From positions 1-36,800 of the forward strand of contig JAADFO010000028.1 in NCBI GenBank assembly GCA_013152815.1: DNA of 36,800 nucleotides, given 5' to 3'. Of this stretch, positions 18,001-24,000 are shown piece by piece (positions within the stretch are counted from its first letter, which is position 1; every line of letters starts with the position of its first letter). The position numbers are program-made. Source of the stretch: Nanobdellati archaeon (GTDB lineage: Archaea > Nanobdellota > Nanobdellia > Woesearchaeales > JAADFO01).

Positions 18001-21000
18001 CATCCAGAGAAATACAGGGATCAGTGAGATGAGCAACAATGCTGTCCATCCGGCAGCCGGCTTTGTCCTCATATCTTTCCCTCTTCGATGATCTCCTCAA
18101 AGCCGTTGAGCATGCTCAGGGTACTGTCTTTTCTGACCACCAACGCCCGCACGTCGGGTCGCCCATCAAGGAGAGACTTCCTCTCTTCATCCGATGTGGT
18201 GAACAGGGCGGTCGCATACACATCTGCCTCTTCGGCGGTGGGTGCCACCACGGTGACTGAGGTCGCGTCCTTCTGGTTGACGATATGAGACAGCCCGAAC
18301 TCTCCCACATATTGATGATAGTCTCCTGAGGTCGCGACAGCCTGGTCCTTCAGCCTGATGGAGCAGATGCTCTGTTCCTCCCGCGGATGCTGTATCCCCA
18401 GGACATGGACCTGTCCGCCCTTCACGCAGATATCTCCCCTTGCATCGATGAGAAAAGCGGTGATTCCCCTCTGCTGCAGCGCCTCTGCCAGCCTGTCAAC
18501 CATGTATCCTTTGGCGATGCTTCCCAGATCGACGAGGACGTCCGGATGGGTCAACGTCACCTCATCCCCTTCTATTCGGATATCCTCGTAGGAGCATCCC
18601 TGTTCTGCGCTCTCGCCCTTCTTGCGCAGGAGAATGATCCTTCCCAACGTTACATCATAGCTTCCCCGGGTCTTCCTGCTGAACAGCAGTGCCTTCTGCA
18701 GCACATCCAGCAGTTCTCCAGAGACCCTGGCCTTCCTGGCCTGGTTGAGCCTGGAGAGTTCGCTCCAGGGGTCATAGATGTTGAAGATCCTCTGCAGACG
18801 CAGAGCCTCCCTGTAGACGTCTTTCATCACTTCTTCAACCGGATGTTGAGATGCACCATAGACCAGAAAATCTATCTTTCCTCCGAAAAGCTCTTTGCTG
18901 ACGGTGATCGGCCCTGTTCTCGACAGTGTCATCTCTCATCATTCATCGAGAAACTTTCTTAAATCTTGTGGAACTGCCTTTCCTGAGCCTGCTCCCTGCC
19001 CGGTCCAGCGCGGCCATGCTCTCCTCGTGTTCTTTGATGAATGCGGCCACCTCGCCCCGGTGTCTCTCCTGCTCCTCCATCCCCCGGGTCACTGCCTGGT
19101 CGATGTTCTGGACGACCTTGCCGATCCGTGCATCCATGGTCTCTATGAATCCGAATGCGCTGTTGTTGAGGCGCTCCAGGAAATCGGACCGGATCCTGCC
19201 GGCGTTCATGTCCAGCTGCTGGGCGACATTCCCCTCGATTTGCTTCCAGAGCATCTTCCTGAAGGCGAACTTCGGCATCAGGAGCCTGAGCTCGTCGCCA
19301 AGAAGACGGAACATCTCATCTATCCTGTAATCCAGGGCGCTCTCCAGGGTGAAGACGTCCCCTGTCGGCAGATGCCCGATGTCTGTCTCGAAGAGGGTGG
19401 AAGAACGCTCCCTGATCCTCTCGATAAGACCGTTGGTCGTCTCGGAGAACCGTCTCACGATGTTCTCGAAACGTCCTCGGACCTTCTTCTCTTCCTCGGC
19501 TCTCCATGGTTCGAAGAACTCCTGCATCATCCCGAGGTACATCCTCTGGACGTGTTCCAGAAGCTGTCTGTTCGAAGACCCTGCCATCTTCCGGTAGGCC
19601 TTTCTCAGCTTCTCCAGCAAAGGTGCATGGTTCTTCTTCATGAATGCCCGGAGGTCTTCATCCAGCATCTCCATGATCCTTTCGATCTCTGCCCTGATGA
19701 GCGGTGCTGCGTCCTGCTGCTCCTCCCTGATCCTTCTCGCCGTCTCCCTGAACGCTTCACGTCTTCGTCCGGTCTCTTCAAGGGGCATCTGCGCCACCCT
19801 GATGCTGAGCGCATGGGCATTCCTCGCCTCTTCGACGATGCCCAGCAGACGCCTGTTCAGCGATTGCAGGAGTATCTCCCCTTTCTCTTCCAGGAAGAAG
19901 GCGGACAGGATATCCTTGAATCCTTCGATGTTGCTCGACGTTTTCTTCCCGTTGAGCGCGAGCTTCGCCGAGACCGGCGAGATGGCGACGGGTTCGCCGA
20001 GCTCCTTCTCCAGGGTCCTGCTGTTGAACCCGACGATCTCCTCCTGTTCTCCGGACGACAGATAGTCGATCTTGTTCAGCACGAAGAAGATCTTCGGGAC
20101 CTCTCTCTTCACCTCTTTGAGGAAGTCTATCTCGTTCTGGCTTACCGGCGGGTCTGCCGAGAGCAGGAAGATGGCTGCATCGATACGCTTCAGATACCCA
20201 TAGGTCATGGCCGTGTTATGGAGAAAGGTCGAGCCGATGCCGGGTGTGTCTATGAGGGAGATGCCTTCCTGGAGGTAGGGTGAAGGATGACCTATCTTAA
20301 CGAGCAATACCTGCTTCTGGTTCTTCGGGTTCTCCTTCTCGGTGATGTAGGCGTGAAGCTTATCGAGGGTGATGATCTTCTCGGTCCTGTCAAGGAAGAT
20401 GACCCGGATGTTCTCCTCTTCCGCATAGCTGATGATGGTGATGATCGATGTGAGCGGGACGATGGCCGTGGGAAGGAGCGCTTTTCCCAGCAGGGCGTTG
20501 ATGAAGGAGGTCTTCCCCCTCTTGAACTGTCCCACCACTGCCAGGTTGAACTTCCCTTTGCTGAGCTTGTCCTTGAGGGTGTCGAGTTCCTTTCTCTCCT
20601 CCGGACCGTCGACCAGCTTCCTGATGCGGTCTATCTGTTCCTCGACCAGCCTCGTCTGCATCCCGTATCGGTCGGTCATCCTGCTCGACGCTCCTCGCTG
20701 CCTTTTGTTGCTCCTTCCTTGTCGCTCAACCATTTCAGTATCCTTATCGCATGATAGGTCGATTCCAGCGTCGGTACCGTCGTGCTCTGCCTGCCGAAAC
20801 CGCCGTTCTTTGCCCTGCACCGTTCCACGAACCGGATACATGCCTGTTCCTTTTCCGGCCGTTGCCCCAGTTCGACGAGCGCTTCGACCGCAAGGCAGGT
20901 CTCTTCCAGAAAGGACGGCGCTCCCTTCTCGGTGAACGAGAATCCGCCATCATGCCCCTGGAACCGCTTGATGCGCCGGGCCATACTGGCCATGGCCATG

Positions 21001-24000
21001 CCATCATCCAGGATTCCCTGTCTCCTGTCGGCTATCGCTGCATAGCAAAGATCGCTGAGGAGATCCTCTTCTCCGGCGATGCCTGCGTCCTGGTTCTTGA
21101 AGCTTTGCTTTCTGAGGGAGCGCTTCAATGCCGGATCCTCGACGATGCTCAGGATCTTTGCTCGGTAATAGGCTGTCTGCGGTCCGATACGCTTCTTCCT
21201 TGACAGGTCTCTTGACAGGGCCATTGTCAGAGTCTCTGGCTCAGGCCATAGGGTATGCATCCGGTGTGTCCTGGCCAGATGCGCCAACCGGTAGAGCTGC
21301 TTCACCTGGCGAGTCTTCACTGAACGCAGGAAGTCCTCGGCATGATCTTCCATGCCCGATATCTCCAGCTCATGGGCTATCCGGAGGGCGAAATAGGTGT
21401 CCTCCAATGTGGCCGGCGCTTCATGGGCAAAGCTGAAGCCACCGTCCTTCTGCCTGCGCGCGAGGAGGAAGCGGCGGATGCTTGTCCTGTCTATGATGTC
21501 CTTACCCATGTCTGTCACCTATCCGGATGGCTTCCCTCTGATGATCCTGCTGCTTGTTATCCTCTCGATGCCTTCAAAGATGTCTTGATATGCCTGTGCG
21601 CAGGCCATGATATCTTCTTTGCCTTCTCTCATCCTGTTCCCGTTGATGGCTGCATAGGCTTTCTGCATCCTCTTCTGGAGCAGGGAAAGGTCTGCATGAA
21701 TCCCGATGAATTCCGGCAGGGTCTTTCTCAGGAACTCTGTCCTGAAGAGGGCCATCTCCAGGAGGCTTTTGGCTTTCACCATGAGACCGAAGAAGGTGAA
21801 CTGGAAATATCTGAAGTGCTTTATCCGCGGGTTCAGATAGGCGAGGTCCAAGTTCTCGCAGATGTCTGAAAGGATGCCCAGAAGGTCATTGAGGCTGTTG
21901 CTCTTGATCAAGAGATCCAGCAGCTGTCCCTGGTCCTGTCTCCTGTTGCCCATCATCACACCAACCGGAACATCACCTGGAAGATGATGACCACGATGGC
22001 TGTCATCGCCACTCCCATGATGGTCGCGTTCTTCACGCTCAGGGCGATCCTTTTCTGCCTCTCCATCTTGGGGAAGTGCAGATAGGTCTGAAGAAAGGTC
22101 ATGATCCCGATGATTGTTCCGCCAATCACTCCAAACGCCATCTCGATCAGATATGCCTGCACAGGCTTCACCCTTAAGAAGAAGTCATCAGCTGAAGCGG
22201 TTTTAGCGTGAGCCGAGGCGGACTTCATCACCTTCCATCCCTGACTGGTGTCCGCTTTATATATTTTGCTTTCTTCAGGGTCAATATGGGCGCCTATGCC
22301 GCGGTCTCCTTTAGTCTTATTGTGATATTCCTTTCTCTTCTTAAAAGAATAGCTAAGATTTATAAAGAGTGACACAACTATGCCACCCAAATATTATTGA
22401 TTTGTGCTTTAAACACGGAGTGTGAAAAACAATGGATTATGGCAGAGATGGTTTCAGAGGAAGCCAGGGCCCCAAAGAGATGCATAAGGCAGTCTGCGCC
22501 GATTGCGGCAATGAATGTGAAGTCCCTTTCAAGCCGTCAGGAGACAGGCCTGTCTACTGCAGAGACTGTTTCAGAAAACACAAGAAGTTTTAGGATCATA
22601 TTTCTTGGTATGTCTCTGGTTTTTTGTTTTTTTTCTTTTCTAGCCCGACCTTTTCAGAGATCATATCCCTCAAAGCAGATCGTTCTCCACAAGGTTTATA
22701 ATGACTGTCCGTCGCCCATCCATGCCATGCTGAGCAGATATGTCGACTACACCCGGCTGAAAGAGGCCAACAGGAAAGCACTGAAGGGCCTGTGGAACAT
22801 GCTTCCTCTCCTCCTGGGTGTCCTGCTGCTCGTCAGCATGATGACCGTCCTCGTCCCCAGGTCAGCCTATGGCATCCTCTTCAACGGCAACCTCCTCTGG
22901 GATTCCATCATGGGAAGTCTTCTCGGAAGCATCCTCACAGGAAATCCGGTCACCAGCTACATCATCGGCGCCGGTTTCCTCGACAATGGCATCAGCATCA
23001 TCGCAGTCACCTCTTTTATCGCAGCCTGGACCACGGTGGGCTTCGTGCAGCTGCCCGTCGAATCCATGGTCCTGGGCAAGCGGTTCGCCCTCGCACGGAA
23101 TGTCAGCGCATTCCTCATGTCCATCATCGTCGGCATGGTGACTGCGCTCATCATTGGTGTGCTCTGAAGTACCCGTATGAAGTACTAGTATGAAGCACCC
23201 GTGCAATCATTGAACGCCCATGGAAAAAAAGACACGATCCGGCTTGAAAAAGAACGGAAGAGGGTATTTCCTGCTGGCCAGCATCACCCTTTATCTCTTG
23301 ACATTCTTCTTCTCTCCTGACCGCATGATGCCCATACTTGAGTCCTATCTCAAGCTCATCCTGCAGATACTGCCCATCTTCATCATCGTCTATGCGTTCA
23401 TGGTCCTGATAGACTATCTTGTCACCGAGGACCTGCTCAAGCATATGATGGGAAAAGAAGCAGGCATCAGGGGTTGGTTCATCGCCATCGTGACCGGCAT
23501 CATCTCTGTCGGGCCGGTCTATGTATGGTATCCTCTGCTCAGGAACCTGCAGAAGCGCGGCATCAGGGTAAGGTTCCTCTCCACATTCCTCTACAATCGG
23601 GGCATCAAGCTCCAGTGGGCATCCCTGCTGATCCTCTATTTTGGATGGACCTATACCCTCGTCCTCCTGACGGTCATGGCCGTCTTCTCCATACCACAGG
23701 GACTCATCACCGAACGCTTCACCATGCTCTCGAAAAAGAAGGGCGCCTCCTGAGAATGGATGTGTCCGTTGTGATGCTGAAAAAATGAAAAAAAAGAAAA
23801 ATAGGAAAAAAAGAAAAAGGGTTGTGGACCCGAAATCATGAAGTAGGATCACTCCTTCTTGACCTTGACCGCTTTCGGACCTCTGTCTCCTTGTTCTCCT
23901 TCGAACTCGACAGCGTCGTTCTCGTCCAGCGATGTGCCTTCCTGCAGTTCAGACTGGTGCACAAAATATTCTTTGCCGTCTTCTCCAGCGATGAAGCCAA

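Follow-up and report, generated by a model that had tools for sequence, protein, structure and literature searches.

Organization of the locus

The window, by which we mean the whole stretch of 36,800 nucleotides analysed here, carries a tightly packed operon behind a fluoride riboswitch, comprising genes for a small membrane protein (family B), a soluble helical protein (family A, g00595), a toroid protein (g00594) and a dynamin-like GTPase (g00593). The features are collected in Table 1. We refer to the genome carrying the window as G000, and the other genomes of the order are numbered in the same way (G003, G026 and so on).

Table 1. Features of the riboswitch-headed operon and its surroundings in the window.
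Feature	Positions	Strand	Remarks
TATA-box-like element	22256..22265	(-)	31-33 nt upstream of the aptamer's first G
Fluoride riboswitch aptamer RF01734: P1, 6-bp pseudoknot, short P2	22172..22241	(-)	39.9 bits
Small inserted hairpin between P1 and the AACCGC element	22205..22214	(-)	common to these switches
Shine-Dalgarno-like GGGTGA	22168..22173	(-)	7 nt 3' of the pseudoknot's 3' strand
Family B: 68-aa two-helix membrane protein, conserved basic loop T-Y-x-H-F-P-K-M	21956..22162	(-)	
Family A, g00595: 144-145-aa soluble basic four-helix bundle	21519..21956	(-)	
g00594: 277-aa prenyltransferase-type alpha-alpha toroid protein	20676..21509	(-)	PF00432
g00593: 578-aa bacterial-dynamin-like GTPase	18943..20679	(-)	PF00350; G1, G3, G4 motifs present
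ApbE, ferric-reductase-like and 117-aa genes	16406..18932	(-)	10-nt gap after g00593, ATGA overlaps

The B and A genes share a TGATG overlap, A and the toroid gene are separated by a 9-nt gap that holds a Shine-Dalgarno (SD) sequence, and the toroid and dynamin genes overlap in ATGA. The initial annotation had described the riboswitch as lying inside a miscalled gene, g00596, and this is borne out: g00596 is a 144-aa ORF with a TTG start (21956-22390) that corresponds to the frame of B read through the switch. The same annotation had delimited the peptide at 21956-22141. Its end stands, and its start moves to the GTG at 22162, which is preceded by the SD-like GGGTGA (22173-22168) and from which B aligns with relatives beginning at residue 1. 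The codon-position mismatch of B is 0.37/0.26/0.57. Refined starts were likewise assigned to g00594 (ATG 21509) and g00593 (ATG 20679). The ApbE, ferric-reductase-like and 117-aa genes are perhaps on the same transcript; they have relatives in 0 of the 55 related loci described below and are not conserved parts of the cassette.

The fluoride riboswitch and its leader

The RF01734 covariance model matches over its positions 1-64 with 39.9 bits (gathering score 34; E = 8.5e-8), with core nucleotides in agreement across all 64 positions. This is the sole Rfam match at gathering within the window, and also the sole one above the cut-off in G000. In a leader alignment of 36 distinct rows, which are related to each other, 93% of cells are paired and 10 of 17 pairs vary on both sides, compared with 30-54% paired cells in slid controls. 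The pseudoknot is 99.5% paired, with two of its six pairs varying on both sides, and P1 is 97% paired. The inserted hairpin (helix 3) is 81% paired, with variation on both sides in all four pairs; an inserted stem is a known optional feature, entered as 'has stem when > 12 nt' in a part of supplementary file 6 of PMC2864571. The score and the covariation of the pseudoknot establish that the riboswitch is genuine, at the position and on the strand originally proposed.

The aptamer occupies the 5' leader directly preceding gene B, with a TATA-like element upstream. Across the leaders, a TATA-like pattern at -40 to -21 occurs in 25 of 38, as opposed to 1, 3, 10 and 3 in the remaining bins of 20 nt; this pattern was picked after viewing the leaders, and a stricter first pattern was not enriched (14 vs 13 of 39). 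Judging from this element, transcription probably starts at the aptamer. The distance from pseudoknot to start codon is 18 nt in the window, with a median of 17 nt across 39 leaders, and the leaders examined contain no terminator-like site on the coding strand. When the leaders were folded, the SD sequence was not more strongly blocked than in shuffles (lower in 20 of 39 leaders; 0.37 vs 0.46 in the window), and the switching step therefore rests on geometry. With the aptamer locked, the SD sequence became more accessible in 32 of 37 leaders, as expected when pairing partners are taken away; the shuffle control gave no effect.

As far as the published passages go, the switch resembles the crcB motif as first described (Weinberg 2010, PMC2864571) in its full-length match, covarying pseudoknot, 5' leader position and optional stem. 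It differs in that it lacks an overlapping terminator and is followed by a start codon after ~17 nt, and in that its first genes belong to families without Pfam or NCBIfam entries. Also comparable is the TK0513-crcB switch of Thermococcus kodakarensis, which is described in parts of PMC8241225 and PMC4247193 as archaeal, presumed translational and followed by a first gene other than crcB. In T. kodakarensis, however, crcB is the next gene, whereas the operon in the window and its genome have no detectable crcB or CLC.

Properties of the encoded proteins

A search with family B gave 55 matches. Two hydrophobic segments are present in 65 of 66 B sequences, and the loop between them carries more lysine and arginine than the termini in all 65 sequences compared (mean K+R 4.1 vs 1.1), a charge pattern that suggests a single topology with the loop inside. 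The membrane cores are free of charged residues in 55 of 65 sequences, and aromatic or polar residues at the membrane edge are kept (W19, F23, T26, Y27, H29, F30 and T47). No Pfam family was consistently assigned to B, none of 23 members matched PF02537 (CRCB), no relatives were found in viral contigs, and the ESM Atlas returned only leads under 0.9. Weak matches to holin and MotA were absent from the rest of the family and were rejected, and weak B matches in G022, G239 and G279 (E 1e-4 to 8e-4) were set aside as chance.

Family A yielded 78 matches, from which 38 representatives of 50-163 aa were taken. The protein is soluble, with zero transmembrane segments and a mean net charge of +6.4, and is modelled as four helices (pLDDT 88.5). 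The stretch 47-60 is conserved, with hydrophobic residues on every face. The invariant positions hold mainly hydrophobic residues (L, I, F, T, G, M), and no catalytic or metal-binding set is suggested among them. Pfam and NCBIfam gave no family for A, none appearing in more than 4 of 72 members; the best match among PDB sequences had E 0.055, Foldseek returned 0 matches at E<=0.001, the ESM Atlas held no usable match and no relatives were found in plasmids. The best VIA-align scores, Z ~15 to designed bundles and 13.6 to p130Cas, lie within helical-bundle noise. A complex prediction of A with B (score 0.00, mark 0.32) was counted neither for nor against an interaction. Relatedness of A to family C or to the dynamin was rejected on hhalign probabilities of 0.6% and 0.2%, respectively.

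The toroid protein g00594 scores 43.9 bits against PF00432 (cut-off 26.5); its PDB matches, to terpene-cyclase and FTase beta domains, are weak and reflect repeat-level similarity only. Relatives occur in 13 of the 55 loci. For g00593, PF00350 (Dynamin_N) scores 102.7 bits, a helical trunk is present and the best PDB match is BDLP (2j68, E 2.5e-32). It shares the Dynamin_N domain and long helical trunk with bacterial dynamin-like proteins (BDLP 2j68, the Campylobacter pair 5owv, IniA 6j72) and differs from them in being single-copy, archaeal and under a fluoride switch, with no partner dynamin in the operon. Its family membership suggests that g00593 might bind or remodel membranes. Relatives were found in three of the 55 loci, and G000 is the only one of 201 genomes of the order to have one.

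The gene tally for fluoride switches by Baker et al. 2012 reportedly includes COG1689 and a GTPase, so g00594 and g00593 may be already-known companions of these switches. Our literature search, whose scope did not extend to that tally or to the gene-list files of PMC2864571, returned no paper pairing a fluoride riboswitch with a dynamin, no naming of COG1689 or DUF6062 alongside the switch and nothing on a fluoride riboswitch in Woesearchaeota.

Two further families, C and D, accompany A in related loci. C is soluble and stands alone behind a switch in G055. The idea that it is a detached N-terminal dynamin domain was unsupported (hhalign probability 1%). A screen of 7997 candidates at E<=0.001, in itself a weak test, likewise revealed no longer protein. 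The model of D (pLDDT 82) has a best Z of 7.4, to TBP, which is not above noise.

Recurrence of the cassette

We next consider 55 loci chosen via A, a choice by which A seems central by construction. In 43 of them an Rfam fluoride match lies 5' of A and on its strand (32 at gathering and 11 more at E<=0.05). After clustering at 90% identity, 33 of 42 clusters have such a match, and just one locus with intact upstream DNA lacks the switch motif. For comparison, the switch occurs in 8 of 151 genomes of the order and exceeds the gathering score in 5; a match in G035, inside a long ORF, was set aside. Given this difference in frequency, A and B are fluoride-regulon families. The earlier counts were reproduced: among 400 other genomes of the order, 5 have A, and the switch exceeds the gathering score at 4 of these 5 loci (the fifth reaching 31.2 bits) and in 5 of 151 genomes. 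The gene order reported before, with B between switch and A in 11 loci and after A in one, also recurs, with numbers of 20 and 4 in the larger set.

The first gene behind the switch is B in 20 loci and A in 6, and switch-B-A is apparently the entire unit in 9. B lies near A in 28 of the 55 loci and C in 20, with C replacing B beside A in 18; the tree of A implies about eight changes between B and C. G106 (100% complete) has A without B, and G328 (95%) has a switch and B without A. Units of switch, C and A have no membrane gene behind them in loci L012, L014, L018 and L038. Other members of the 55 loci include MFS carriers (16), toroid proteins (13), HerA-like proteins (11), PF00999 antiporters (7), enolase (5), dynamin (3) and H+-PPase (1).

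Distribution of CrcB and CLC

Profile searches agreed with the initial annotation that G000 has neither CrcB (no PF02537 match at E<=1; control positive in 11 of 14 genomes) nor CLC (PF00654). CrcB was also not found in G106, G117, G255, G289, G328, G366 or G401-G403, nor in any checked genome with A or B, and no CrcB or CLC relatives were found in the window and the 55 loci. However, CrcB exceeds the cut-off in just 3 of the order's 401 genomes, so its absence from cassette genomes says little; weak CrcB matches in G182, G306 and G345 were set aside as chance. The three crcB genomes hold none of A, B and C. In G003, G026 and G048 crcB takes the first slot behind the switch, and the switches preceding crcB in G003 and G026 match the cassette-switch profile at E ~1e-18. 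The sole CLC in these genomes, in G328, reads GKEAP and GGLITP and lacks the CLC-F signatures, given in a passage of PMC11139923 as GNNLI/GMGLI, GREGT/V and GEVTP.

Discussion

The operon opens with the aptamer, and A, B and C are repeatedly linked to switches of this kind. We estimate a probability of about 50% that these genes form a modular, probably translational fluoride-tolerance regulon under an ON switch, protecting the membrane and ion balance. We favour this reading because the switch recurs upstream of A, the start codon lies ~17 nt from the pseudoknot and tolerance genes co-occur. Fluoride would enter as HF and cause the pseudoknot to fold, which would free the ribosome site ~7 nt away and let the first gene be translated; the genes further back would be coupled to it through overlapping stop and start codons. 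The products would then limit fluoride damage instead of forming a two-part exporter. B would be a membrane hairpin of single topology with its loop inside, and A a basic bundle whose conserved aromatic stretch may bind a partner, itself or the membrane surface. Together with the dynamin-like GTPase, A and B would most likely maintain the membrane and proton gradient, to which relatives would add a cation/proton antiporter, a spare enolase, an H+-pyrophosphatase or an MFS carrier. With dynamin in three of the 55 loci, a membrane-remodelling role of A and B cannot rest on it. Passages in PMC11139923 and PMC2864571 list Na+/H+ antiporters, enolase, pyrophosphatase, HAD and formate hydrogen lyase behind fluoride switches, the former treating antiporters, enolase and pyrophosphatase as tolerance genes, and antiporter, enolase and H+-PPase are likewise found in the related loci. 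A, B, C, D, the toroid protein and the dynamin are unnamed among the switch genes in those passages.

The proposal that B and A form one module replacing Fluc finds no support in that form, as B is near A in only about half of the loci, C often takes its place, G106 and G328 split the pair and A has no transmembrane segment; A and B would rather be interchangeable members of a kit, with no obligate pairing. Of the two functions put forward for them, damage repair or tolerance is the better fit and export the poorer one. The claim of a new riboswitch-linked gene family is borne out, in fact for two families, A and B, in a genome where neither Fluc nor CLC was detected.

It is nonetheless conceivable, although we consider it unlikely, that B exports fluoride in a new way, without relation to Fluc, FEX and CLC-F, its two-helix subunits forming an oligomeric channel to which A could be an optional partner in the cytoplasm, in which case it would span small-genome archaea and at least one bacterium. 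B is a small membrane protein in the switch-adjacent slot that crcB occupies elsewhere, it is first behind the switch in 20 loci and alone behind it in G328, where the CLC lacks CLC-F signatures, and its membrane-edge residues are kept; its slot and the CrcB-less genomes fit an exporter as well. The mutual exclusion with crcB is, however, expected by chance when 398 of 401 genomes lack CrcB over the cut-off, and the Omnitrophota-titled genome without crcB is a single case in a phylum whose sample has crcB in 56 of 101. A is found with C and without B in 18 loci and in G106. B also has two helices, no CRCB or Voltage_CLC match and no CLC-F signatures, and its one-sided charge bias and want of a fixed membrane-gene partner would be unlike the antiparallel Fluc dimer, which is of dual topology or made from paired genes. 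That A and C instead protect soluble fluoride targets, such as phosphoryl-transfer enzymes or phosphate balance, with B as an unrelated membrane member of the kit, strikes us as rather improbable. The solubility and positive charge of A, its co-occurrence with enolase, H+-PPase and HerA-like ATPase, the solitary C of G055 and the tie between phosphate balance and fluoride resistance noted in a passage of PMC11139923 are consistent with such a role; the mostly hydrophobic invariant residues of A, which suggest no catalytic or metal-binding set, argue against it.

We are similarly doubtful, to a degree that makes it a poor bet, that an MFS carrier or TauE protein is the exporter, with A, B, C and D as accessory or regulatory proteins and short cassettes like that of the window as remnants. 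Sixteen of the 55 loci encode a 400-aa MFS_1 protein, which in L028, L039 and L049 is the leading gene after a switch of its own, and a TauE protein follows a second switch in L005. Yet the operon in the window has no MFS gene, the nearest MFS relative in G000 (33% identity, contig C27) has no switch over the cut-off, and carrier-free switch-B-A units are common and have intact frames. Very improbable, finally, is that the switch has drifted to another ligand or that a mobile stress island simply carries the genes along. The cassette is distributed patchily, occurring in 0 of 3 further genomes from the same family and 1 of 8 within one genus, and is often bordered by ArsR/ArsP-type clusters, but the RF01734 core is matched over 64 positions and covaries, the crcB switches of G003 and G026 match the cassette-switch profile, and the link to the switch persists through many changes of gene order.

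Against the tolerance-regulon reading stands that no fold or family suggests a job for A, B or C. Passages in PMC11139923 give Fluc/FEX and CLC-F as the only established fluoride exporters and leave much non-export tolerance unexplained. Since the riboswitch names the stress, recurrent families behind it are direct and cheap candidates, and here there are two (A and B; four with C and D) in genomes without a detectable exporter. We regard A and B as good candidates for an unstudied part of fluoride defence and not clearly as a new exporter; if confirmed, they would represent either an exporter of a new class or a novel mechanism of tolerance, each of which would be useful for organofluorine biodegradation. 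The leaders also add natural archaeal riboswitches to the known set, of which one had been tested as of 2021 according to a passage in PMC8241225.

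The riboswitch and its operon

The initial annotation placed a fluoride riboswitch at the head of an operon and inside a miscalled gene, and both proved correct. The RF01734 match, obtained in an Rfam scan, was the sole Rfam family detected in the window and the only such match over cut-off in its genome, and the operon junctions are tight (overlapping or 9 nt apart). The 144 aa of gene model g00596 are the frame of a small membrane peptide (family B) extended through the switch; B itself starts at GTG 22162 and spans 68 aa, and its codon pattern is as expected for a protein-coding sequence.

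Features of the window and of related loci (positions with an L prefix are in fetched loci)
Feature	Position	Strand	Remark
ApbE flavin transferase, ferric-reductase-like membrane protein, 117-aa gene	16406-18932	-	downstream of dynamin
Dynamin-like GTPase (g00593)	18943-20679	-	nearest relative BDLP
Toroid protein (g00594)	20676-21509	-	PF00432
Family A (g00595)	21519-21956	-	
Family B	21956-22162	-	
Fluoride riboswitch RF01734	22172-22241	-	39.9 bits, 64/64 positions
ArsP-type permease, two short ORFs	22397-23753	+	matches below cut-off
MgtE, half-size MFS, VTT/PAP2/LssY protein, DUF302, P-type ATPase, Fur-family regulator	24544-34889		metal-handling stretch
Family C	L023:5583-6002; L105:1063-1485; 19 more loci		switch-led
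Family D	L055:5208-5555; 15 more loci		113 aa, alpha/beta
HerA/DUF87-like ATPase	L044:1568-2620; 10 more loci		350 aa, often directly after A
crcB genes	L094:313-1049; L095:7404-8168; L096:8054-8778		switch-led; all three of order sample
Back-to-back switches, opposite directions	L005:5495-5773; L013:4829-5187; L037:1157-1435; L055:2378-2610		second arm: DUF6062-TauE-enolase-antiporter (L005), dynamin (L013), enolase (L055)
Switch unreported by Rfam	L029:1687-1760		that of L034 minus one A in conserved 3' segment
5'-shortened antiporter	L035:4560-5507		278 vs 386 aa, as though leader lost

When 38 leaders, 36 of them distinct, were aligned, 93% of cells were paired, compared with 30–54% in slid controls, and 10 of 17 pairs carried changes on both sides; since the rows are related to each other, a shuffle test on the pairing overstates this signal. 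A small stem inserted after P1 covaries as well, and is already permitted by the 2010 motif drawing in PMC2864571 (supplementary file 6). The switch belongs to a known class; a divergent fluoride switch before crcB is the subject of a preprint (bioRxiv 10.64898/2026.10.21.760802). A TATA-like element lay 21–40 nt upstream of the switch in 25 of 38 leaders using a pattern picked after the leaders had been viewed, and a stricter pattern gave no enrichment. The pseudoknot 3' strand is separated from the start codon by a median of 17 nt (39 leaders; 18 nt in the window), and no terminator-like site was found on the coding strand within 18000–22700, which together point to translational control, like that presumed for the T. 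kodakarensis switch in PMC8241225. Folding did not bear this out: just 20/39 leaders had a ribosome site more closed than in their shuffles.

The window operon continues through A to the toroid protein and the dynamin, the latter giving no match at E<=1e-30 in 200 other genomes from the order. Toroid and GTPase genes may already be listed behind fluoride switches in Baker 2012 and in two supplements of PMC2864571. The ApbE, ferric-reductase-like and 117-aa genes start 10 nt after the dynamin gene with ATGA overlaps between them, and therefore may share the fluoride operon's transcript in the window; they are absent from 55/55 related loci.

Association of A and B with fluoride switches

The link of A and B, both unannotated families, to fluoride switches far exceeds what chance would give. 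Starting from A, we collected 55 loci (7 from genomes, 48 from metagenomes) and scanned 54 for switches at gathering and 23 at E<=0.05. In 43 of the 55, a same-strand switch lay upstream of A, 32 of them reaching gathering and 11 falling short of it; after clustering at 90% identity the figure was 33 of 42. In three (L009, L028, L055) it sits 1.6–4.6 kb away, at the head of a longer gene run. Nine of the 12 loci without an Rfam match stop before the operon head, and in two (L029, L054) a profile made with the remaining leaders detected the motif, which leaves L035 alone in having its upstream DNA intact but no switch motif. The base rate across the order was 8/151 genomes at E<=1e-4 and 5/151 over gathering, under a stricter filter that can lose weak matches; the locus count and the base rate are not independent, since several genomes are represented both among the genome-collection loci and in the order sample. 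Behind those eight switches we found crcB (3), the cassette (2), an antiporter (1), C alone (1) and a likely chance match (1).

B yielded 55 matches in the protein collection. Of 66 sequences that carry its motif, 65 show two hydrophobic segments, with a basic loop in 65/65 and membrane cores free of charged residues in 55/65. A (78 matches) is basic, has no membrane segments and is predicted to form a four-helix bundle (pLDDT 88.5); its 38 representatives span 50–163 aa, with no fusions. Residues 47–60 of A are 95% conserved and hydrophobic on the whole helix circumference, which suggests a candidate binding surface. We looked for a consistent Pfam entry, NCBIfam entry or PDB sequence relative of A and B and found none; A, B, C and D had no match in the family libraries searched, nor did we find them in the papers that our literature searches returned.

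Modular composition of the cassette

The proposal that A and B form one module did not hold as an obligate pairing: B occurs in 28 of the 55 A loci, C in 20, both in 2 and neither in 9. Restricting the count to the 20 loci with flanks of 1.5 kb either way gave 10 with B only, 8 with C only and 2 with both. A FastTree phylogeny of 51 A proteins has 8 changes between the B and C labels, compared with a mean of 13.4 and a minimum of 8 when labels are shuffled. A directly follows the switch in 6 loci. Across 400 genomes of the order, A was present in 5, B in 5 and both in 4.

C, a third switch-led family, is a soluble protein of 135–142 aa for which no Pfam match passed the cut-off; it almost excludes B when near A, and is the sole gene behind the switch in genome G055. 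G106 (100% complete) has a switch, C, a 92-aa gene, A and the toroid, with no B; a 133-aa membrane gene follows the toroid after about 190 nt. G328 (95%) has a switch and B without A. C had no match in the window's genome and was absent from five B genomes in a search that was positive in G106 and G055. D is recurrent in the cassette, and the best fold match of its model (pLDDT 82), to TBP at Z 7.4, does not rise above noise. We found no mention of a HerA/DUF87-like ATPase in the literature consulted on fluoride regulons.

Candidate functions

We consider the locus, at roughly even odds (about 0.5), to represent one version of a modular regulon for fluoride tolerance, judging by gene company and anatomy. 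Tolerance is favoured over export because some switch units contain no membrane gene and because co-members are of tolerance type. The 55 loci include MFS (16), D (16), toroid (13), HerA-like (11), antiporter (7), enolase identified by its sequence (5), dynamin (3), and H+-PPase, DUF6062 and TauE (one each); antiporter, enolase and pyrophosphatase are assigned to pH balance and target replacement in PMC11139923. B would be a membrane hairpin with A as a peripheral partner, and the two, plus dynamin where present, would protect the membrane and proton gradient.

That B is instead a channel, and thus a new fluoride exporter, appears unlikely. B does fill the slot directly behind the switch that crcB occupies in all three crcB genomes, a placement that speaks for export, but units without any membrane gene argue against it. 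CrcB and CLC indeed gave no match in the window's genome (90.8% complete), as initially annotated, nor in the other A or B genomes examined, except that G328 has a single CLC, which lacks the CLC-F signatures; this absence carries little evidential weight, since CrcB exceeded the cut-off in only 3/401 genomes of the order and overlap with the seven sampled A-or-B genomes is not expected. Export by the MFS protein, a member of some loci, is decidedly improbable, and a role of the soluble A and C in guarding soluble targets is quite doubtful. It is very improbable that the switch has drifted or that the genes are passengers.

Further observations

A 116–122-aa gene follows each of the three crcB genes and presumably resembles DUF190. 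The cassette also turns up, next to a YchF gene, on L005, a contig whose title reads Omnitrophota; the genome lacks crcB, which occurs in 56/101 of its phylum sample, but this single case is weak evidence. ArsP-type permease, ArsR-like, DsbD-like and thioredoxin-like genes often adjoin the cassette, with Ars/Dsb/thioredoxin-type borders also at L003, L028, L029, L032, L034, L039 and L049, and this recurrence suggests shared toxic-anion islands. Near 24390 the window sequence contains a short stretch of N.
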